This document shows, piece by piece, positions 3,958 through 63,720 of a DNA stretch of 64,000 nt (positions are counted from its first letter, which is position 1; every line of letters begins with the position of its first letter). Origin of the DNA: an uncultured bacterium. GTDB taxonomy: Bacteria > Patescibacteriota > Minisyncoccia > Phycocordibacterales > GWA1-40-21. The stretch is from assembly GCA_903831305.1 (NCBI GenBank), contig CAIKXE010000011.1, positions 12,002 to 76,001 on the forward strand, read 5' to 3'. The notes below the pieces were generated by a model. It was given only the letters and a program-made list of their open reading frames with translations. It had not been told where the DNA came from and did not search any database. Made by a program: the position numbers and the translations under genes.

Positions 3958-6900
3958 ATGTCTAAAGAGCCTAGAAAAACAAATAAATCTAACGATATAA
4001 ATGAAACTTTTTCATACGGTGTAGTTTATGTTTATTCTATTCCGGACGAAAAACATAAGGGGCGTTTAAAAATCGGTAGTGCAACTATAACTTCAGCCAA
4101 GTCAACTCAAGATGACGTCAATTTAGCTGCTGAAGAGCGAATACAGCAACAAACAAAAACGGCTGATATTTCTTATGTACTTGAGCATGCAGAGCTCGCT
4201 ATTACAAATGACAACTGTTTTTTCCGTGATCATGATGTTCATGAAGTTCTCAAGCGATCAGGTTATGAACGTAAAACAGAGAATGTTAAAAATGCACACT
4301 CGGAGTGGTTTGAAGTTAGTTTAGACGTTGCAAAGAAAGCAATTCAAGCTGTAAAAGAAGGGCGAACAGCATTAATGACTGGAGAAAAAATTGCTCCCAA
4401 GACTTCTGAATTTTCTTTTCGTCCAAACCAGCGCGAAGCGATTGATAAAACTATCAGAGCCATTAAGAAAAATCGCAAACATTTTCTTTGGAATGCAAAG
4501 ATGCGTTTCGGTAAAACATCAGCGGCTATGCAAGTGGCTAAAGAGAATGAAATGAAAAGAGTCATTATCGTCACTCATCGCCCTAGCGTAAGTGTTGATT
4601 GGTACGATGACTTCAACAAAGTATTTATTGGCACAAACTATGAATACTCTTCAAAAACAAAAGGCTTAAATATAAGTACCCTCATGAAAGGTGACAAACC
4701 TTTTGTTTATTTTGCATCTTTACAAGATTTACGCTTATCAAAACGGGTAGTAGAGGATGGGTCCGCTGGATCTAAGGCTGCAGGATTTGATAAAAATGAT
4801 GAAGTTTTTGATACAACCTGGGACATGCTAATTATTGATGAAGCCCATGAGGGAACACAAAGTAATCTCGGGGATGCTACTTTTTTAAAGATACCAACAA
4901 ACTTTACGCTACAGCTTTCCGGCACACCTTTTAATATTCTACATAAGCACGAAGAAGAAGATATATACACCTGGGACTATGTAATGGAACAGGAAGCAAA
5001 GCTCAATTGGGACGAGCGCAATCCCGGAGTACCAAACCCTTATGCTGAACTACCAGCTCTGAGTATTTTTACTTACGACATAGATACATTTGCTAGCCAT
5101 ATTGGTAAATTAGGCGAAGGTTTTCATGATTCCTTAGACGGTGCTTTTAAATTCCATGAGTTTTTCCGTGTACAAAAAGATAATGAGGGTAATGATACTG
5201 CTGAGTTTGTCCATGAGCCGATGGTTAAGAAGTTCTTAGATTTATTGGCTGATGATAAGTTAAAGACAAAATTCCCATACGCGACAGAAGAATACCGTAA
5301 CTATAACAAGCATTCCCTCTGGTTATTACCGAATCGTGTCAAAGTTATTGAAGCAATGGAGAAATTGCTTAAGGACCACCAGATTTTTGGTTCTAATCAA
5401 TTTGGCGTTGTAAATATTTCTGGAGATAGTCGTGATGATGAAGAAGATAAAGACGCCAAGGATCGCGTTACCAAGGCAATTAAAAATTATGACTATACAA
5501 TAACACTAACAGGTCAACGTCTCACAACTGGGGCATCTGTTCCTGAATGGACAGCAATCTTTATGATGTCTGACACAAACTCTGCCACTACCTACTTACA
5601 GACAGCTTTTAGATGTCAAACTCCAGCAAGAATAGATGGTAAGCTAAAAACACAAGGATATGTATTTGATTTTGCTCCAGATCGTACTTTGAAACTGGTC
5701 GCTGAGGCGATAGAGCTTAACCACAAATCAGGAAAGACTAATTCACCAGAACAGAAAGAAGCGATGAGACAATTTCTTAACTTCTGCCCAATTTTAGCCG
5801 CGGAGGGTGGAACAATGAAGCTATATGATGTGGGGAAAATGCTCGTTCAATTGAAAAAAGCCATTATTGAAAGGGTTAGCCGTAATGGTTTTGATGATCC
5901 TAAATTATACAACGATGAGTTGTTACGACTTGATGAGCTAGATGTAGCTAAGTTTAATGCGCTCAAAGCTATTGTTGGTAAATCTACTAGTGAAAGAATA
6001 AACGAAATTGAGATTAACAGTCTTGGTATGACTGATCTCCAAGCAAAGAAAGCAGAAGAAGCTGAACGTAAGAATAAACAAAAGAAAGAGCTATCAGAAG
6101 AAGAAAAGGAAAATTTGAAAAAATTAAAGGAAGCCCGTGAGCAGAAGCAGACGGCTATTAGTATATTACGCGCTGTGAGTATACGTATGCCGATGTTGGT
6201 ATATGGAGCAAATGTATCAATCCACGATGATATAACTTTGCAAAAGTTTATTGAGCTTGTTGATGAAGAGTCTTGGCAAGAGTTTATGCCGGTGGGACTA
6301 ACAAAAGAAAAGTTTAAGGAATTTACTAAATATTATGATGAGGAAGTATTTAAGGGGGTTGCTCACAGTATTCGGGCCAAAGCTTTTGATTGTGATGACC
6401 TCTTACCGACAGATAGAATACGCACAATTTCTGAAATATTCAGCACTTTTAAGAATCCAGACAAGGAAACCGTCCTAACACCTTGGAATGTGGTGAATAT
6501 GCATCTAACCAAAGCTTTTGGTGGCCATGATTTTTGTAGTGAGGTTATAGATAAAAAAGGAAAACCAGAATGGAAGAGTTATAATGTTGATACTAGTGTA
6601 TGGTCCCAGGACGACACAAAGATCCTTGAAATAAATTCAAAGTCTGGTTTGTATCCCTTGTTAGCATGTTATAATGTATATTCGAGACAGCTTAAGAATA
6701 GTAAAGAGAGAAATAAACTAGAAGAGAAGATATTTAGACAAGTATGGAATAAGGTTTTGGCGGATAATATTTTCGTGCTTTGTAAGAGTCCAATGGCTGT
6801 GAGTATCACAAGACGAACGCTTGCCGGATATAGCGGTGCTAGGACGAATATTATTTATATTAAGGACCTGGTTAATAAACTCCAACAGAAAGGTGGTTTT

Positions 6901-37892: not shown

Positions 37893-38135
37893 CTACCCCA
37901 AACGAGAGGTTTCAAAAATATAGTCATCTGCTTCACTTTGTGTAAGCTCGTTCAAGGCATCGATTTTTTCTTCTTTTTCCTCTTCGCTCTCATTTCCAGA
38001 AGCTAGGATATAGGCTGTGAGCTGACGCTTCTGTTTCTCGGTGATCATTTCTGTACTTCTGCAATCTTCATAATCAGGGAAGAAGTACCCCTTCCTAGGG
38101 CCAAACATACCACACTTTACTTTTGCTGTTGTCAT
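37893..38135 (-). CDS. small hypothetical protein (acidic C-terminus)
   Basis: The track ORF 37893-38225 overlaps the upstream gene out of frame. The internal ATG at 38135 (MTTAKVKCGMFGP...) removes the overlap. Confidence 0.4.
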   Translation of the reverse strand: MTTAKVKCGMFGPRKGYFFPDYEDCRSTEMITEKQKRQLTAYILASGNESEEEKEEKIDALNELTQSEADDYIFETSRLG

Positions 38136-38152
38136 AATATTTTGATAAATAA

Positions 38153-38770
38153 TTAAGCTGGTAATAAACTTGAAATCAACTCTGACGCTTGAAAACTGCT
38201 CAAGTAAGGTTCGTTCAACTGGCAAAGATATTCTTTCTTCGACTCTTCGTCACATTTAGTCTCAATCAAATTTTGCAAAAAAGTTCTTTGCTTTTGACTG
38301 GCAATTTTCAATGTCCCATCATCAGAAAAGGAACAGGTGCGATCTCGACCCTCAAGGTCTGGCTCATCTTTTACTGGAAATGCCCCAGCCGTGGCTACTA
38401 CATCAGGAGAATCAATTTTCAAGGCATCTATCATCTTACAGGCCATCATTATTGAATTGATTATGGCCGTATTCCGGGCAAAAGCTAAACCACGCTCAAT
38501 CCAACGGTTCTCTTGATTAAGAAGTACACTACCATGACCCAAACCCACGATCTCTGATTCTCGGCGTAAGGTAGCCACAAAACTAACCAAACCGGGCCTC
38601 TTGAATTGGTTCATGAGTTGAGTATCTTCTGTAATTTTCAAGGATAAATTGATTTCACCGGTATTTTTGATAATCAGCTTATTAACCGGATGTCGTTTAT
38701 CATGAATATCAGCCTTTTCTTTAAGCACCGAATAAGGTGATTTAACGCTTGTTGGTTTATAATTGTTCAT
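38153..38770 (-). CDS. hypothetical protein (205 aa)
   Basis: Complete ORF in a co-directional four-gene cluster. No motif recognised. Confidence 0.45.
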   Translation of the reverse strand: MNNYKPTSVKSPYSVLKEKADIHDKRHPVNKLIIKNTGEINLSLKITEDTQLMNQFKRPGLVSFVATLRRESEIVGLGHGSVLLNQENRWIERGLAFARNTAIINSIMMACKMIDALKIDSPDVVATAGAFPVKDEPDLEGRDRTCSFSDDGTLKIASQKQRTFLQNLIETKCDEESKKEYLCQLNEPYLSSFQASELISSLLPA

Positions 38771-38964
38771 AATTTGTAACTTAGATTAGACTTCTTGATA
38801 ATAATTTCTCCGAATGAATAACAAACGGTCACTCTCTCGTTAATATCAAAGCCGGAGATATTTTTGATATGATGATTGGCTAAAGAAATATAGGGGACGG
38901 GTGGCAAGTCATGATGGGATCCTTCACGGTTCTGGTAGCCCACCTTTTGTTCACGTTCTAACAT
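38767..38964 (-). CDS. small hypothetical protein (65 aa)
   Basis: 4-nt start/stop overlaps with both neighbours suggest translational coupling. Confidence 0.35.
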   Translation of the reverse strand: MLEREQKVGYQNREGSHHDLPPVPYISLANHHIKNISGFDINERVTVCYSFGEIIIKKSNLSYKL

Positions 38965-39290
38965 GACTTTTTATCTTTTAACGGTTCCACACTGCGATAG
39001 TAGAAGAGATTGATGGTTCGTGGATAACGGCTGATAACATTACCTTGAGCATCCTTCTTTTCAATAATTGTGATACTCTTCAAAGCTTTTGAGCCCTTCC
39101 TCGGGGCGTAACCCAGACTCAACCATTTACTAAACGGAAGAGCTGACCTCTCGGGAGAATAGTTCTTTAGTTCTGCTTTTCCCCAGATTTTTTCCACCTG
39201 CGCGGCAACGGCGTCTCTCGTTTTCTTGGAATCGTGCCAATTGGAAACCTTGGGTCCAGCCAAGATCTCGGCAATACTTAATACTGTCAT
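38958..39290 (-). CDS. hypothetical protein (110 aa)
   Basis: First gene of the minus-strand cluster. No motif. Confidence 0.4.
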   Translation of the reverse strand: MTVLSIAEILAGPKVSNWHDSKKTRDAVAAQVEKIWGKAELKNYSPERSALPFSKWLSLGYAPRKGSKALKSITIIEKKDAQGNVISRYPRTINLFYYRSVEPLKDKKSC

Positions 39291-39670
39291 TTGATTTATA
39301 GATTAATAATAAATTTACACGAGGGACTAACTCGTGTGCTATGAGGATCTATATCGACCTGATTCTCATTGATATAGTTTTAAATGGTTTGTGGTGATAA
39401 TTTAAAAGGGGGTATGGGGGGGGCTGTCTGATTTGTTCCATGGCCGGTAGCGGGTGGATAGGGGGAAACGACCCTATTTGTGTCCTGGGCTACTATTTTA
39501 AAAAAGGTGGGGGGTTGTTTCAAAAGTGTGTCTCCATAAAATTTCTGCCGGAATTTTTGGAAAAGGACGTTTGCCTTATTTTGACTTTGGAGCTATGATT
39601 ATGGAGTCGGAAAAATTGAATAAATAGTAATCTAAATCAGAGAGTAAAATCTCTGACATGATGAAAAAAT

Positions 39671-39777
39671 CTGCAACAGTTTAAAGAACCCAGCATATGG
39701 GGCTACTGTTGCAGTCATATCGGGAAACCGGTATGGAGGGCCACAAGCTCTCACCTATGTGCTGGGCTTTTTGCGTC
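39671..39777 (+). ncRNA. structured RNA candidate (leader/riboregulator or sRNA) ending in intrinsic terminator
   Basis: Perfect 10-bp stem ctgcaacagt/actgttgcag. A 7-bp GAAA-tetraloop hairpin atatcgg-gaaa-ccggtat. Long-range cccagcatatg/tatgtgctggg pairing followed by ctttttg. Confidence 0.4.
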
Positions 39778-39790
39778 TAAAAATTAAAAC

Positions 39791-41803
39791 ATGCAAACAT
39801 TAAATCTTGATAATATTGAGACAATAATCGGCCACTGGGGAGAATTTAAAACAAATGCTCTGGAGCTTTTGGACAGGATGTTAGAATCATACCCAAATAA
39901 TGTAATTTTGTTACAGAATAGAGGATCCGTCTTAAATGACCGTGGTGAATTTCAAGAAGCAATAAATAATTCCGATAAATTGCTAGAGATTGATAGTCAA
40001 AATATAACGGCATTAAATAGTTTGGGGTATGCGCTGAGAAAGCTTGATAGGAATCAAGATGCAATTAGGATTCTTGATGAAGCACTTAAAATAGACCCTC
40101 AGAATTTAAATGCTCTAAACAATAAAGGTGTTGCTCTCAGTAATATGAATAAAAATCAGGAGGCTATCGAATTATATAATGAGATTCTAAAAATTGACCC
40201 GAGTTTTGAATATGCACTAAATAATAGAGAATATGCTCAAAAAAGTCTAAAAAAAGATAGCATTTTTTTAGGGAGTGATTTTGAGAATGCTATAAATCTA
40301 ATGAATGAAACGAACGGTAATCTATTTTTAACGGGTAGTGCTGGTACTGGAAAATCTACAGCAATTGAGTATTTTAGAAAAAAAACAAAGAAAAAAATTG
40401 TGATTCTAGCACCGACAGGTGTCGCCGCTTTAAATGTCGGGGGTGAAACGATCCATTCATTTTTTCATTTTGGCATCGATATTACCCCAGATTCTGTTAA
40501 AAAAAATGATTTGCTAAACCAAGGTAACGATATTTACAGGAATATAGACACAATAGTAATAGATGAAATATCAATGGTCAGGGCTGATTTGATGGATTGT
40601 GTAGATAAATTCATGAGGCTTAATGGTAAGGATGCTAATAAACCTTTTGGCGGTGTGCAGATTATACTTGTTGGTGATCCGTACCAGCTTCCACCAGTTG
40701 TCACAAAAGATGAAGAAGAACTATTCACTTCATATTATAAAAGCCCATATTTTTTTGATTCAAAAGTTTTTAGTCAAGCAGCATTCTTGTTTGTTGAGCT
40801 TAAAAAAATATATCGACAAAATGATTTGAAATTTATACAAACATTGGAAGCTTTTCGTCTTGGTCAATTTACTGGGAGTCATTTAGAATTGATAAATACG
40901 AGGTATTCAAGCCAGGCCTTATCTGAGCACGATTTACATATTAATCTTGTATCAACCAATGCTGTGGCAGATGCAATTAATAATAAAAGGCTTTCTAAGT
41001 TATCAACTAAACAATACATATCCACAGCTATGGTAACTGGAAGGTTTGATAGGAATCCACCAGCAAATAAAGAGCTACTTATTAAGGAGGGGTCAAAAAT
41101 AATGTTGTTAAAAAATGATCCGGGTGATAGGTGGGTTAATGGTGATCTTGGTGAAATAGTCAGTATTAAAGAAGAAAATAGTCAGATAAAAGAAATTGTA
41201 ATAAAGCTTGATGATAAATCGGAACATATTATCAATCGTATAACTTGGGAAAAAATCAAATTTTTTTACAACAGAAATACTAAATCGATTGAAACAGAGG
41301 TTATAGGCACCTTTACTCAATTTCCTATAAAATTAGCCTGGGCGGTTACGATCCATAAAGGTCAAGGTAAAACATACAAAAATATGGTTGTGAATTTTGG
41401 AAGAAGAACTTTTGCTCATGGGCAAGCATACGTAGCAATAAGTAGGTGTCAAAGCTTAGGTGGCTTATTTCTCACTACTCCATTAAGAAAGGATGATGTT
41501 TTAATTGACAAAAGAGTGTGCGAATTCATGGAAAGTAATATCTGTTCTGAAAAAGTAAACTCTAAGTCTCCAGAAAATGAACTAATGGGTCTCGTAGAAA
41601 GACAGGGGCAAGAATTAGGAGAATTTAGAAAGTTTTTTTCTGACATCGCACCACTCCTAGATAAACTAGATAAGAGTCCTGAAATTGTACAGGCGATTAT
41701 GAATGGAAGAATAACAACAGACATAGCTAAAGCTCTCACTGAAGATAATTTAAATCCTAAAGAAGCCCCAGAAAAAATTAATCCCAATGACATTCCGTTT
41801 TAA
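39791..41803 (+). CDS. TPR-repeat domain fused to PIF1/RecD-like SF1 helicase
   Basis: N-terminal TPR-like repeats (NLNALNNKGVAL...). Walker A LTGSAGTGKST. Walker B IVIDEISMV. ILVGDPYQLPPV, AVTIHKGQGKTY, YVAISRCQS. Confidence 0.8.
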   Translation: MQTLNLDNIETIIGHWGEFKTNALELLDRMLESYPNNVILLQNRGSVLNDRGEFQEAINNSDKLLEIDSQNITALNSLGYALRKLDRNQDAIRILDEALKIDPQNLNALNNKGVALSNMNKNQEAIELYNEILKIDPSFEYALNNREYAQKSLKKDSIFLGSDFENAINLMNETNGNLFLTGSAGTGKSTAIEYFRKKTKKKIVILAPTGVAALNVGGETIHSFFHFGIDITPDSVKKNDLLNQGNDIYRNIDTIVIDEISMVRADLMDCVDKFMRLNGKDANKPFGGVQIILVGDPYQLPPVVTKDEEELFTSYYKSPYFFDSKVFSQAAFLFVELKKIYRQNDLKFIQTLEAFRLGQFTGSHLELINTRYSSQALSEHDLHINLVSTNAVADAINNKRLSKLSTKQYISTAMVTGRFDRNPPANKELLIKEGSKIMLLKNDPGDRWVNGDLGEIVSIKEENSQIKEIVIKLDDKSEHIINRITWEKIKFFYNRNTKSIETEVIGTFTQFPIKLAWAVTIHKGQGKTYKNMVVNFGRRTFAHGQAYVAISRCQSLGGLFLTTPLRKDDVLIDKRVCEFMESNICSEKVNSKSPENELMGLVERQGQELGEFRKFFSDIAPLLDKLDKSPEIVQAIMNGRITTDIAKALTEDNLNPKEAPEKINPNDIPF

Positions 41804-41819
41804 TTATTATTATCAACGA

Positions 41820-42596
41820 ATGACAAAACTCACCCCTAAAACAATAATCTCTATCCTCCTACCAATAATGGTTATTCTTCTTGTCGTTAATTTTTTTCTT
41901 TATTATCACCCTAAATCAAAACCTATTCACCAGAAATGCCCTGACGAATACAGCACTGATGCCGCCGGAACAGCGGAATCCAATACCGCCTTTTATAAAT
42001 GGACTAATGATTTTTATGACAACTACCCACAAGCCACCGTGGCGGACTGGTCTAAGGCCAGAGTTCAGTTTTGGGTAGATAATGACTGTAAAGCCGCCCT
42101 ACAGAGATACAAAGAAGCAAAGGATGGCACAGTGGATACTGCCAAAATGAACGCTATAAAAATTATGGTGTCGGAAATGGTAGTTAATTCTAAATACGTC
42201 AGCGAACTGGGTTTCTCCTTTAATCTCCCAAACGGTATGTCGGTTATGGCCGATCCTGATGCCCCTCGCTTATTTATAATTCTGGATTCCTGGGATGCTA
42301 AGGGAGACCAAGACCCCGTAGCCGTGATAATAACCGCAACGCCAAATGATCCCTCACAAACACCTTTACAATGGCTTAATGGACCGAATTCTGGTGCTGA
42401 TATGTCAAAGGGATATACGACGATAAAGATCGACGGACAGGAAGCTATATCATTGAGGGAAGGGACTTGGGTTACCGTTAACACGCCGGACAGCAAAAGA
42501 CAGTTGAGTATTGCCACTCTTCCGTCCCTGGACCCTAGTTCAGAATTGATAGCGAAGATGAAATCTATCATAGATTCTCTTGTTTTTACTAGATAA
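41820..42596 (+). CDS. hypothetical membrane-anchored protein
   Basis: The ATG at 41820 (MTKLTPKTIISILLPIMVILLVV) avoids overlap with the helicase gene. N-terminal TM anchor. Confidence 0.5.
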   Translation: MTKLTPKTIISILLPIMVILLVVNFFLYYHPKSKPIHQKCPDEYSTDAAGTAESNTAFYKWTNDFYDNYPQATVADWSKARVQFWVDNDCKAALQRYKEAKDGTVDTAKMNAIKIMVSEMVVNSKYVSELGFSFNLPNGMSVMADPDAPRLFIILDSWDAKGDQDPVAVIITATPNDPSQTPLQWLNGPNSGADMSKGYTTIKIDGQEAISLREGTWVTVNTPDSKRQLSIATLPSLDPSSELIAKMKSIIDSLVFTR

Positions 42597-42605
42597 TAAT
42601 TAATT

Positions 42606-43394
42606 ATGAATAAAATATTCAATAAGTTCACCATTGCTTCGTACGTTCTAGGTTTGATCACTATCTGTGGCCTTGGTTACTATCTTATATATCTAGATGA
42701 CGTTTCTTGCGATGGTAATAATGTGGGGGTAATTGACATAATTGGAGATATTGATATTTTAGAAGATTCAGAATACATCAGTGTGTCGTCGATAAACGTT
42801 GTTCAACAAATTCAAGATCTGGAAGATAACCCAGATATCAAAGGAATAGTGTTAGATATTGACTCTAGTGGCGGCCGATTAGAACCAGGAGAGGAGATAA
42901 TGCTGGCTATACAAAAAGTTTCCAAGCCAACGATAGCGGTGATTCGTGACACTGGTGCCTCAGCGGCCTACTTAATTGCCAGTGGTGCGGATAGAATTTT
43001 TGCTAGTCGTTTATCTAGTGTGGGCTCAATTGGAGTTACGACCGACTTCTTAGACACCAGTGAAAGAGATAGGAGAAATGGTGTTATTTTCTATGACCTG
43101 TCATCCGGTATTCATAAGGGGGCCATGAAAGAGAATAGTCAACTTACTTCTGCCCAAAAGCAAGTGATTATGGGAGATATAATGAAACTTTATGAGGTCT
43201 TTGTTGAATATGTAGCTAAAAATCGAAATTTATCGGTAGAGAAGGTAAAAAACCTGGCAGATGGGCGTGTCTACGTGGGTGACGATGCTTTAAAATTTGA
43301 ACTTATAGATCAAATAGGAGGTATGCCAGAAGCGACGGAATGGCTGGAAAATAAGATAGGAGAGGAAGTGAGTTATTGCTATTTGGGAGAGTAG
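42606..43394 (+). CDS. sppA: signal peptide peptidase SppA paralog (S49 family)
   Basis: KPTIAVIRDTGASAAYLIASGADRIFASRLSSVGSIGV. Clear paralog of 15133-16077. Confidence 0.75.
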   Translation: MNKIFNKFTIASYVLGLITICGLGYYLIYLDDVSCDGNNVGVIDIIGDIDILEDSEYISVSSINVVQQIQDLEDNPDIKGIVLDIDSSGGRLEPGEEIMLAIQKVSKPTIAVIRDTGASAAYLIASGADRIFASRLSSVGSIGVTTDFLDTSERDRRNGVIFYDLSSGIHKGAMKENSQLTSAQKQVIMGDIMKLYEVFVEYVAKNRNLSVEKVKNLADGRVYVGDDALKFELIDQIGGMPEATEWLENKIGEEVSYCYLGE

Positions 43395-43417
43395 TAGGAC
43401 TAGTGTATCATGTAAGT

Positions 43418-43978
43418 ATGGCTGAATTAATTGAATATTGCTTTGCTATAACCACTAAAAGGTTCAGACAGGACCTGCAGCGAGTAAAGGAGCAAGGAAA
43501 GAGTGTAAGTGGCTATATTGATATAAAACACGGGAATAAGACATCTGTGGCTGATTATACTGTGGAATATGGCACTGAATATGACTATTTAGTGATCCAT
43601 AATGCCGGAGTGGAGCAAAGAATCAGGCTTGTGGACGGTCAACTAAAGTTGGGGGTCAGAATCTGGTTTTTGTGTGAGTGCGGGGCACATATGGCCAAAC
43701 TATACCTACCACCCGGCGGTAAGGAGTTTAAATGCCGAAAATGTCACCATTTGGTATACCAAAGATCCAGTATTAATAAGAACAGTAAACATGGGGCTTT
43801 TATTTATAAAAATAGTCTTATATTAAAGATTATGGCGATGAGGGAAAACTTGGGACGTATATTCTACTGTTCAAAATACACCAAGCGCTTCAAACGTTGG
43901 CTTGATTTGTGTGATAAGGCCGGACTGACAGACGAGAGGGTGAACGCAAATAATCTTATGAGCGGTATTAATCGTTGA
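43418..43978 (+). CDS. hypothetical protein with Cys4 zinc-ribbon
   Basis: CECGAHM...CRKCHH. The start is uncertain (track 43376 overlaps the upstream gene). Confidence 0.4.
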   Translation: MAELIEYCFAITTKRFRQDLQRVKEQGKSVSGYIDIKHGNKTSVADYTVEYGTEYDYLVIHNAGVEQRIRLVDGQLKLGVRIWFLCECGAHMAKLYLPPGGKEFKCRKCHHLVYQRSSINKNSKHGAFIYKNSLILKIMAMRENLGRIFYCSKYTKRFKRWLDLCDKAGLTDERVNANNLMSGINR

Positions 43979-55194: not shown

Positions 55195-55279
55195 GGAGAG
55201 ATGCGAGAGTGGTTTAATCGACAGACCTGGAAAGTCTGCGTGGGGCAACCCACCAAGGGTTCGAATCCCTTTCTCTCCG
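55195..55279 (+). tRNA. tRNA-Ser (anticodon GGA)
   Basis: Acceptor ggagaga/tctctcc. 3-bp D stem. Anticodon stem cagac/gtctg with loop cuGGAaa. Long variable arm. T arm aaggg-ttcgaat-ccctt. No CCA encoded. Confidence 0.8.
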
Positions 55280-55305
55280 CAATTTTTAGTGATATTATGT
55301 AGGTT

Positions 55306-63047: not shown

Positions 63048-63121
63048 TGGTGCGGGTAGCGAGAATCGAACTCGCGTCTCAACCTTGGGAAGGTCGCATT
63101 CTGCCACTGTACCATACCCGC
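63048..63121 (-). tRNA. tRNA-Gly (anticodon CCC)
   Basis: The reverse complement gives GCGGGTA...cgacc-uuCCCaa-gguug...T-loop TTCGATT...TACCCGC-A-CCA, with CCA encoded. Confidence 0.8.
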
Positions 63122-63461: not shown

Positions 63462-63536
63462 GCCCTCATAGCTCAACGGATAGAGCAATCCCGTCCTAAG
63501 GGAGAGATGTAAGTTCAATTCCTACTGGGGGCACCA
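63462..63536 (+). tRNA. tRNA-Arg (anticodon CCU), tentative
   Basis: Acceptor GCCCUCA/UGGGGGC (one G-U). D arm GCUC-AACGGAUA-GAGC. Anticodon loop gUCCUaa. T loop TTCAATT. CCA encoded. Single mismatches in the anticodon and T stems. Confidence 0.6.
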
Positions 63537-63638: not shown

Positions 63639-63711
63639 GCCGAGATAGCTCAGTTGGTAGAGCATTCCCCTGAAGAGGGAAGGGTCCCCAGTTCGAGCCT
63701 GGGTCTCGGCA
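63639..63711 (+). tRNA. tRNA-Phe (anticodon GAA)
   Basis: GCCGAGA-TA-GCTCAGTTGGTAGAGC-a-TTCCC-cuGAAga-GGGAA-ggtcc-CCAGG-TTCGAGC-CCTGG-TCTCGGC-A. Confidence 0.85.
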
Positions 63712-63720
63712 CACAAAAAT

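Follow-up and report, generated by a model that had tools for sequence, protein, structure and literature searches.

A LOOT RNA in Patescibacteria mobile DNA with a conserved pseudoknot that may serve as its terminator

In a 64,000-nucleotide (nt) stretch of DNA from an uncultured Patescibacteriota bacterium (contig CAIKXE010000011.1, positions 12,002 to 76,001; hereafter the window), a short intergenic element with an inverted repeat and a run of thymines precedes a gene for a helicase. The original prediction, drawn from this stretch by itself, took the element for a new structured RNA candidate with alternative pairings and a terminator, tied it to the downstream TPR-PIF1 helicase gene and proposed an Rfam scan and a covariation analysis as checks. 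What kind of RNA is this, if it is one, and what would it do for the DNA that carries it? We found that the element is a copy of LOOT RNA, and that this family has a long-range pseudoknot helix directly beside a run of uridines (U-run). Our preferred reading, to which we give a probability of roughly 0.55, is that LOOT serves as a cis-acting attenuating leader RNA of a mobile element, in which the RNA's own pseudoknot would build the terminator that gates the downstream genes.

LOOT RNA in the window and its relatives

We scanned the whole window against Rfam 15. The sole match other than transfer RNAs (tRNAs) was LOOT RNA (RF03000), whose covariance model aligned over its full length (model positions 1-121 of 121) to 39629-39752 of the + strand with 78.8 bits (E = 3.6e-13), where the gathering score is 46.4 bits. 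A permissive scan of 39200-39900 (E up to 10) gave no family besides LOOT, and neither a tRNA nor a transfer-messenger RNA was found at the site. The folding energy of 39625-39785 was -57.2 kcal/mol compared to -34.4 +/- 3.5 kcal/mol for shuffles (z = -6.5), and none of 200 shuffles was as good. Given this z score and the match to the model, the fold is far beyond chance. The proposed Rfam scan thereby bore out a real structured RNA, and membership of the element in the LOOT family is virtually certain. The object itself is already known and is not the new candidate that it had been taken for; the new part, as far as the searchable literature shows, lies in the findings at the level of the family.

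The LOOT motif was first described by Weinberg et al. 2017 (PMC5737381) and the Rfam 14 paper places it among "metagenomic-based RNAs" (PMC7779021). The Rfam 15 update gave it two additional covarying pairs. We found no function, host or context for LOOT in the searchable literature, which does not extend to the supplement of Weinberg et al. 2017.

In the window, P3 with its GAAA loop is followed directly by P4, as the model expects (Table 1). The outermost P1 pair is U-A where the model has C-G, a compensatory change, and the P1 motif reads UCUAAA/CAUGA with an AAAAAA linker next to the family form CCUAA.../...CAUGG with its A-rich linker. The upper part of P2 forms 4 base pairs (bp) versus 8 bp in the model, and the Rfam alignment flags these positions as non-pairs. 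Both local structures that had been predicted, a perfect 10-bp inverted repeat and an 8-bp hairpin with a GAAA loop, are present and correspond to the lower stem of P2 and to P3. On the other hand, the element had been started at 39671, a boundary that omits P1 as well as the promoter and leader (39571-39622). The Rfam model itself stops at P4 (39752), with the 3' tail and its pseudoknot, the U-run and the 5' leader all outside it. Taking these parts together, window positions 39607-39772 (approximate ends) encode a LOOT RNA of about 165 nt.

Relatives were collected with a degenerate search pattern built from conserved LOOT positions. This pattern fixed CUAAA, CAUG, AAAAA, GU and GAAA, and on those positions the Rfam consensus alone is informative. 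Scanning the species-representative genomes of GTDB returned 105 loci (L numbers below), of which 86 carried LOOT hairpins, and all 18 sampled relatives passed the Rfam threshold (59-100 bits). Pairs were counted in an alignment of 82 genome-derived sequences carried through to the U-run (A1), while helices were measured per sequence on 77 genome copies; this included the lower stem of P2, since the MAFFT alignment misaligned it. A further 63 copies from metagenomes served as a replication set, for about 150 relatives overall. A looser pattern run against 2.9 million IMG/VR contigs gave 24 matches, all of them coding sequence without LOOT hairpins.

The family may also form a tertiary contact. 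The classic 11-nt receptor for GAAA tetraloops is CCUAAG/UAUGG (PMC2615604). With the family consensus CCUAAA/CAUGG, the internal loop of P1 matches 9 of the 11 receptor positions and keeps the UA_handle signature CU/AUG; the two differ in the G-U closing pair, replaced in LOOT by an A opposite a C, and in the outer C-G pair, which is U-A in the window copy. P3 is always capped by GAAA in the Rfam consensus, the same residues being fixed by the search pattern in the collected sets. It is plausible from these motifs that the GAAA loop of P3 docks on the receptor-like loop of P1.

The apex-tail pseudoknot and the putative ends of the transcript

One pairing lies beyond the Rfam model. The original prediction had pointed to complementarity between CCCAGCATATG, in the loop of the first hairpin, and TATGTGCTGGG further downstream. 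This pairing is present at 11 of 11 positions counting G-U and can be extended to 13 pairs, joining the P2 apex (39689-39701) to the 3' tail (39754-39766) with a duplex energy of -24.8 kcal/mol. Its core of 8 pairs (39689-96 with 39759-66) keeps standard pairing in 97.1% of cases across the 82-sequence alignment, with compensatory changes at every one of them. One core position, for example, occurs as A-U (36), C-G (19), G-C (13), U-G (7) and U-A (5). This support equals or beats that for the inner stem of P1 (95.3% paired, compensatory changes at all 7 pairs) and for P3 (96.0%, 8/8 pairs). None of 500 shuffles matched the observed values, and sliding the partner by 1-3 columns lowered the pairing to 34-43%. 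Within single sequences the contiguous helix spans 7-13 bp; the median duplex energy is -21.9 kcal/mol (n = 77), compared to -10.4 kcal/mol when the tail is taken from other sequence classes. Similarly, a helix of at least 7 bp is found in 60 of the 63 metagenome copies (median -20.9 kcal/mol). The covariation analysis thus upheld the pairing, which is very probably real and constitutes the fifth and best-supported helix of LOOT. Because G-U pairs dominate two of its positions (57 and 66 of 82), the structure is confined to the + strand transcript.

The first hairpin and the long-range pairing had been proposed to be either mutually exclusive or pseudoknotted. The second option held for the 10-bp stem. 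Among relatives, the lower stem of P2 comprises 9-12 contiguous pairs in 74/77 copies with hypervariable sequence, and the connecting loops are regular: A-rich L1 measures 5-9 nt in 68/77 and L2 2-8 nt in 63/77. In view of this long stem and these loop lengths, the lower stem and the apex-tail helix most likely coexist as an H-type pseudoknot. The competitor of the long-range pairing is a hairpin inside P2. This apical hairpin has a mean energy of -6.0 kcal/mol versus -1.8 kcal/mol for shuffles, and it is destroyed when only the 3' segment, which in 35 copies takes no part in tail pairing, is shuffled, the observed fold lying more than 2 kcal/mol below the shuffled mean in 29/35 copies. The complete pseudoknot breaks it in 74/77 copies. 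The 5' arm of the apex has two conserved and mutually exclusive partners, namely the tail and the apical hairpin, and since the tail must displace the hairpin in order to pair, the RNA would have two alternative states.

The terminator arrangement that had been described stood as far as the U-run is concerned. In the window, C plus TTTTT (39767-39772) directly follows the pairing, and in 65/77 genome copies and 53/63 metagenome copies only 0-1 nt separate the end of the long-range helix from the U-run. The other half of a textbook terminator, a local hairpin, was not called, and the hairpin that the tail can form locally is weak (4 bp and -2.1 kcal/mol in the window, median -2.2 kcal/mol across relatives). 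If termination occurs, its stem would be the pseudoknot helix, because the local hairpin is weak and no simple terminator was called. The 13-bp helix, whose 3' strand abuts C + UUUUU, agrees with the description of a terminator as a stable helix beside a U-run and departs from that of a G+C-rich local hairpin. From this arrangement we consider it probable that LOOT's own pseudoknot helix acts as an intrinsic terminator. Two atypical copies were noted among the relatives: one (L078, ~5034-5179, - strand) is broken off after P3 with neither P4 nor tail, and the other (L112, 3793-3890) is without P4 and retains the apex-tail pairing and the U-run.

At the 5' side, a leader motif with consensus ACAAYUNAAUA lies 7-14 nt before P1. 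It is found within 40 nt of P1 in 53/84 loci compared to 5/84 and 10/84 in two controls further upstream. Of 38 loci scored for a TATAAT-like box, 20 have it ending 8 nt ahead of this motif; in the subfamily of the window the gap is 14 nt. Given this set distance, the transcript probably starts at or just before the leader motif. No pairing partner for the leader within LOOT was found by a mutual-information scan.

Hosts, neighbouring genes and mobile DNA

All LOOT-bearing genomes of the GTDB set are metagenome-assembled genomes (MAGs). Sixty of the 86 loci carry labels of Patescibacteria or the Candidate Phyla Radiation (CPR), including Saccharibacteria, Parcubacteria/Paceibacterota, Microgenomates, Gottesman-, Taylor-, Staskawicz- and Nomurabacteria and others. 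The remaining 26 comprise 13 labelled just "bacterium", several on chromosomes below 1 Mb, and 13 labelled otherwise, mostly with automated names or on 3-kb contigs. Named hosts of LOOT are almost all Patescibacteria, a group of ultra-small bacteria. MAGs with labels such as Gammaproteobacteria, Pseudomonadales, Flavobacteriaceae, Rhizobiaceae or Elusimicrobium (L028, L040, L048, L053, L057, L059, L083, L123 and others) look like mis-assigned or mis-binned contigs and not like true hosts; one isolate name among them contains "PATE" and belongs to a 1.08-Mb contig.

The nearest open reading frame (ORF) within 300 nt downstream is on the same strand as LOOT in about 90% of cases (64 versus 8 on the opposite strand in genomes, 47 versus 5 in metagenomes). 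In 49/86 loci it begins at most 75 nt past the U-run, and in the window the distance is 18 nt. So short a distance leaves no space for a promoter of the ORF's own, and the window helicase would for this reason be reached only by read-through. The content of these downstream genes is highly diverse. No Pfam family is represented more than twice among 56 genes directly downstream of LOOT, and the gene of the window is the one PIF1 helicase in this set; the 142 nearest neighbour genes are likewise diverse. Most neighbours other than recombinases are unknown or resemble defence or replication genes, and models of defence systems gave generic helicase matches only.

One partner recurs, a large serine recombinase whose domains are Resolvase, Recombinase and a zinc ribbon (PHROG "integrase"). 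Its gene is found in the same 8-kb block in 47/85 LOOT loci versus 0/43 pattern hits that are not LOOT and, in metagenomes, in 34/82 LOOT loci versus 1/38 controls. It is upstream and divergent in 35 loci (within 40-360 nt in 14/86) and downstream on the same strand in 10. In the subfamily in which the two are adjacent (L030, L038, L046, L061, L103, L104, L114 and others), homology between CPR classes is restricted to the recombinase gene, the spacer and LOOT. It runs from about -1470 to +50 relative to LOOT at 65-75% nucleotide identity, ending at the recombinase stop codon on one side and 0-50 nt past LOOT on the other. A gene for a 440-amino-acid (aa) serine recombinase and LOOT appear here, by sequence comparison, as a two-gene module of about 1.6 kb that is conserved while its flanks vary. 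Genomes with 2-3 LOOT copies have one recombinase gene for each copy (L061, L104 and L121 in MAG CAZIZK01; L036 and L081 in VMER01), and L061 and L104 share 2.6 kb at 93% identity, spanning the recombinase gene, LOOT and a staphylococcal-nuclease-like gene.

An inverted repeat with arms of 8-10 nt lies 10-45 nt upstream of the leader motif in L038, L046, L050, L051, L061, L104 and L114. It overlaps the LOOT promoter at the spacer and the -10 box, and its arms change in a compensatory manner between loci (TGATAACA/TGTTATCA, TAATAACG/CGTTATTA, AAATAATAGC/GCTATTATTT). The palindrome is missing from the window and from most loci where no recombinase gene is adjacent (mean best arm 6.4 versus 5.0; shuffles 4.9). 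Its role could be that of an operator or of an attachment site for the recombinase.

Further genes were detected in the vicinity of LOOT, encoding terminase large subunit (L104 6497-7999, L057, L114, L030), terminase small subunit together with a ParB-methylase (L087, L046), Dda-like helicase and S49 "head maturation protease". The phage packaging genes among them converge on LOOT from the opposite strand, on its downstream side and at distances of a few hundred to 2,700 nt. Such an arrangement suggests prophages as the carriers of at least some LOOT copies, though no LOOT was found in IMG/VR.

The window, part of a freshwater metagenome scaffold, has its LOOT copy in an island of about 6 kb (Table 1). 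Small unknown ORFs on the - strand (37893-39290) are followed by LOOT, the TPR-Dda/PIF1 helicase gene, a 269-aa ORF, a gene for an S49 "head maturation protease"-like peptidase and a 200-aa ORF. Host genes for a histidine kinase and a response regulator flank the island on one side, and gatB, rpiB, rpe, fba and the RNase J gene on the other. Four of the island ORFs recur beside LOOT in Paceibacterota/Parcubacteria genomes (L032, L033, L037, L043, L075, L106).

Table 1. Features of the LOOT locus, in window positions
Feature	Position	Strand	Remarks
Sigma-70-like promoter, TTGCCT / 17-nt spacer / TATGAT	39571-39599	+	Promoter scan
5' leader motif AAUUGAAUA	39614-39622	+	Family consensus ACAAYUNAAUA; kept in relatives; outside Rfam model
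P1 hairpin	39629-39663	+	Outer stem 39629-32 / 39660-63; inner stem 39637-43 / 39650-56; Rfam alignment
P1 internal loop UAAA / CAU	39633-36 / 39657-59	+	Terminal loop GUAAAA; Rfam alignment
A-rich linker AAAAAAU	39664-39670	+	Upper-case AAAA in Rfam consensus
P2	39671-39714	+	Perfect 10-bp lower stem CTGCAACAGT (39671-39680) / ACTGTTGCAG (39705-39714)
P2 A-rich loop L1 UUAAAGAA	39681-39688	+	
P2 apex CCCAGCAUAUGGG	39689-39701	+	Pairs with 3' tail; local 4-bp hairpin possible, -5.8 kcal/mol
P2 loop L2, GCU	39702-39704	+	
P3 hairpin, 8 bp, CATATCGG-GAAA-CCGGTATG	39716-39735	+	Tetraloop 39724-27; Rfam alignment
P4 hairpin, 6 bp, loop CACAA	39736-39752	+	Rfam alignment; end of model
3' tail CCUAUGUGCUGGG	39754-39766	+	Partner of apex 39689-39701 (pseudoknot, putative terminator stem); outside Rfam model
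C + UUUUU run	39767-39772	+	Directly after tail; putative termination point
TPR + PIF1/Dda-like helicase gene	39791-41803	+	Pfam PIF1 2e-31; PHROG Dda-like helicase 4e-76
LOOT-bearing island, ~6 kb	37893-43978	both	Host genes on either side

Three further observations concern these surroundings. A 65-aa ORF at 38767-38964 (- strand), between two of the unknown ORFs, weakly resembles SymE/AbrB (E = 0.0014, which falls short of the Pfam cut-off) and may encode a small DNA-binding or toxin-antitoxin-type island protein. Four tRNA genes of the window, for Ser-GGA, Gly-CCC, Arg-CCU and Phe-GAA (55195-55280, 63048-63121, 63462-63536 and 63639-63712), are unrelated to LOOT. Finally, the Parcubacteria genome RAAC4_OD1_1 has a SAM-I riboswitch (54.5 bits; L106, 1005-1115) at a distance of 5 kb from LOOT.

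Proposed attenuation in cis and its alternatives

If LOOT is an attenuating leader, its own promoter would drive it as the first segment of a transcription unit in Patescibacteria mobile DNA, usually near a large serine recombinase gene. The LOOT core would fold first, after which the emerging tail would invade the apical hairpin and complete the pseudoknot. The pseudoknot helix beside the U-run would then stop RNA polymerase, and a compact RNA of about 165 nt would be released by default. If some factor held the apical hairpin shut, the polymerase could read through to the genes behind LOOT, which in the window are the Dda/PIF1-like helicase gene and the ORFs as far as 43978. That LOOT exerts such regulated attenuation in cis is a tentative proposal, which we rate at somewhat below even odds.

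Phage leader RNAs that stop at a terminator shortly past an early or late promoter offer a parallel. Among them are the lambda PR' "6S" RNA, with antitermination by Q, and two immunity RNAs processed from operon leaders, P4 CI and P1 c4. On the proposed reading LOOT would share with them a short length, a promoter of the mobile element, a place ahead of an operon and beside the integrase region, and a terminator that is to be overcome for downstream expression. They differ from LOOT in that they are not, to our knowledge, known for a conserved tertiary fold.

Several observations weigh against an attenuating leader. The pseudoknot is far stabler than the apical hairpin (-22 versus -6 kcal/mol), so the "switch" may be a mere folding intermediate and termination constitutive. 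The helix proposed as terminator stem joins distant segments instead of forming a local hairpin, and the "loop" of the pseudoknot holds about 50 nt of folded RNA. A simple hairpin-terminator scan called no + strand terminator at the window LOOT, although it is blind here because the stem beside the U-run is long-range, and no published expression or 3'-end data were found for any LOOT RNA. Part of the apparent conservation is uninformative, since the invariance of CUAAA, CAUG, AAAAA and GAAA in the collected sets was imposed by the search pattern. ORFs were called crudely, from the first start codon in each open frame. The entire 64-kb window contains no recombinase gene, and for this reason its LOOT copy looks like part of a small or decayed island. 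Lastly, a strongly conserved tertiary fold ahead of unrelated downstream genes also fits an RNA that acts in trans.

This last point leads to the best-surviving alternative, which is unlikely but deserves serious consideration. On this view LOOT would be an independent RNA made by the mobile element and active in trans or inside a particle, for instance as an immunity or regulatory RNA, as a partner of the serine recombinase or as a self-assembling RNA. The pseudoknot and U-run would only make and protect its 3' end, and the genes downstream would be neighbours and not targets. The Rfam type of LOOT, "Gene; sRNA" (small RNA), is in line with this idea, as are the preservation of an elaborate fold whatever gene follows and the strength of the terminator helix (median -21.9 kcal/mol). 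So are the observations that inter-lineage homology of one subfamily covers the recombinase gene and LOOT only, ending 0-50 nt past LOOT, and that every LOOT copy has its own recombinase gene in multi-copy genomes. Structured RNA genes beside a recombinase gene or in phage-like DNA are familiar from the IS110 bridge RNA, the IscB/TnpB omega RNA (HEARO), phi29 pRNA, ROOL and GOLLD. LOOT resembles them in this respect and, in one subfamily, also forms one conserved unit with the recombinase gene, as bridge and omega RNAs do, though its partner is a large serine recombinase, unlike theirs. No complementarity of LOOT to flanking DNA was found, no dedicated test for a guide segment having been possible with the element ends and targets undefined. 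An independent small RNA gene would not be expected to have same-strand genes downstream in about 90% of loci, half of them starting within 75 nt with no space for a promoter, and a conserved competing apical hairpin would have no obvious use if termination were constitutive.

A riboswitch for a small molecule or second messenger is a good deal less likely. P1-P4 would then be the aptamer and the exchange between apex and tail the expression platform. The complex conserved fold with its probable tetraloop-receptor contact, the mutually exclusive pairings of which one builds a terminator, and the position directly ahead of same-strand genes would all suit such a device. Riboswitch and attenuator platforms, like LOOT, have one strand with two exclusive partners, and one of the two choices sets a strong helix beside a U-run. 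ZTP, fluoride and preQ1 riboswitches even share a pseudoknot strand with the terminator, but in these the pseudoknot competes with the terminator, whereas in LOOT the pseudoknot itself would be the terminator stem. Moreover, the genes downstream of riboswitches point to the ligand, while those downstream of LOOT (nucleases, a methylase, membrane proteins, a helicase and many unknowns) are without common function. LOOT is also located on mobile DNA, and no ligand candidate emerges. The original prediction had read the arrangement as the logic of a riboswitch, an attenuator or a small RNA. A close same-strand gene in about 90% of loci fits the leader or attenuator, and a metabolite riboswitch is unlikely because the downstream genes are so mixed.

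A slightly fainter prospect is that the recombinase-LOOT module moves between Patescibacteria lineages with the RNA as part of the biology of the recombinase, as a signal of the integrated or excised state, a cofactor or a directionality factor. The palindrome that overlaps the LOOT promoter in one subfamily is a possible attachment site, and on this basis LOOT could report or set the integrated versus excised state. We know of no described RNA cofactor for large serine recombinases, and a search of the literature for RNA-linked serine recombinases found nothing. If true, the coupling would make LOOT the first structured RNA functionally tied to a serine recombinase.

It is very improbable that conservation acts on the DNA, for instance through an attachment site of the recombinase or through a single-stranded DNA origin, and not on the RNA. 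Serine recombinase genes are close by and the covarying palindrome covers the LOOT promoter in one subfamily, but this palindrome is upstream of LOOT and not inside it. Furthermore, the structure needs G-U pairs that would be A-C mismatches on the other strand, motifs such as its GNRA and UUCG tetraloops and its receptor-like loop belong to RNA, and the element is framed by a promoter at fixed distance and a U-run. We reject a regulatory element specific to the TPR-PIF1 helicase gene, the least probable option: the helicase start codon is 18 nt past the U-run in the window, but downstream genes vary, with PIF1 found in 1 of 56, and in L104 the Dda-like helicase gene is on the far side of the recombinase gene and not behind LOOT.

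As far as checked against the searchable literature, the pseudoknot and putative terminator, the hairpin that competes with it, the promoter with its leader, the host range within Patescibacteria and the link to serine recombinases are new. LOOT has been an orphan since 2017, known in that literature from metagenomes only, and our analysis supplies it with a host group, a setting in mobile islands and prophage-like DNA with an integrase, predicted transcript boundaries and a fifth helix. On these results an extension of the Rfam model in both directions seems advisable. Next to nothing is known of how these uncultured bacteria regulate their genes or of the biology of their mobile elements, and a widespread regulatory RNA would be a useful handle on both. 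In summary, the findings at the level of the family make an orphan RNA testable.

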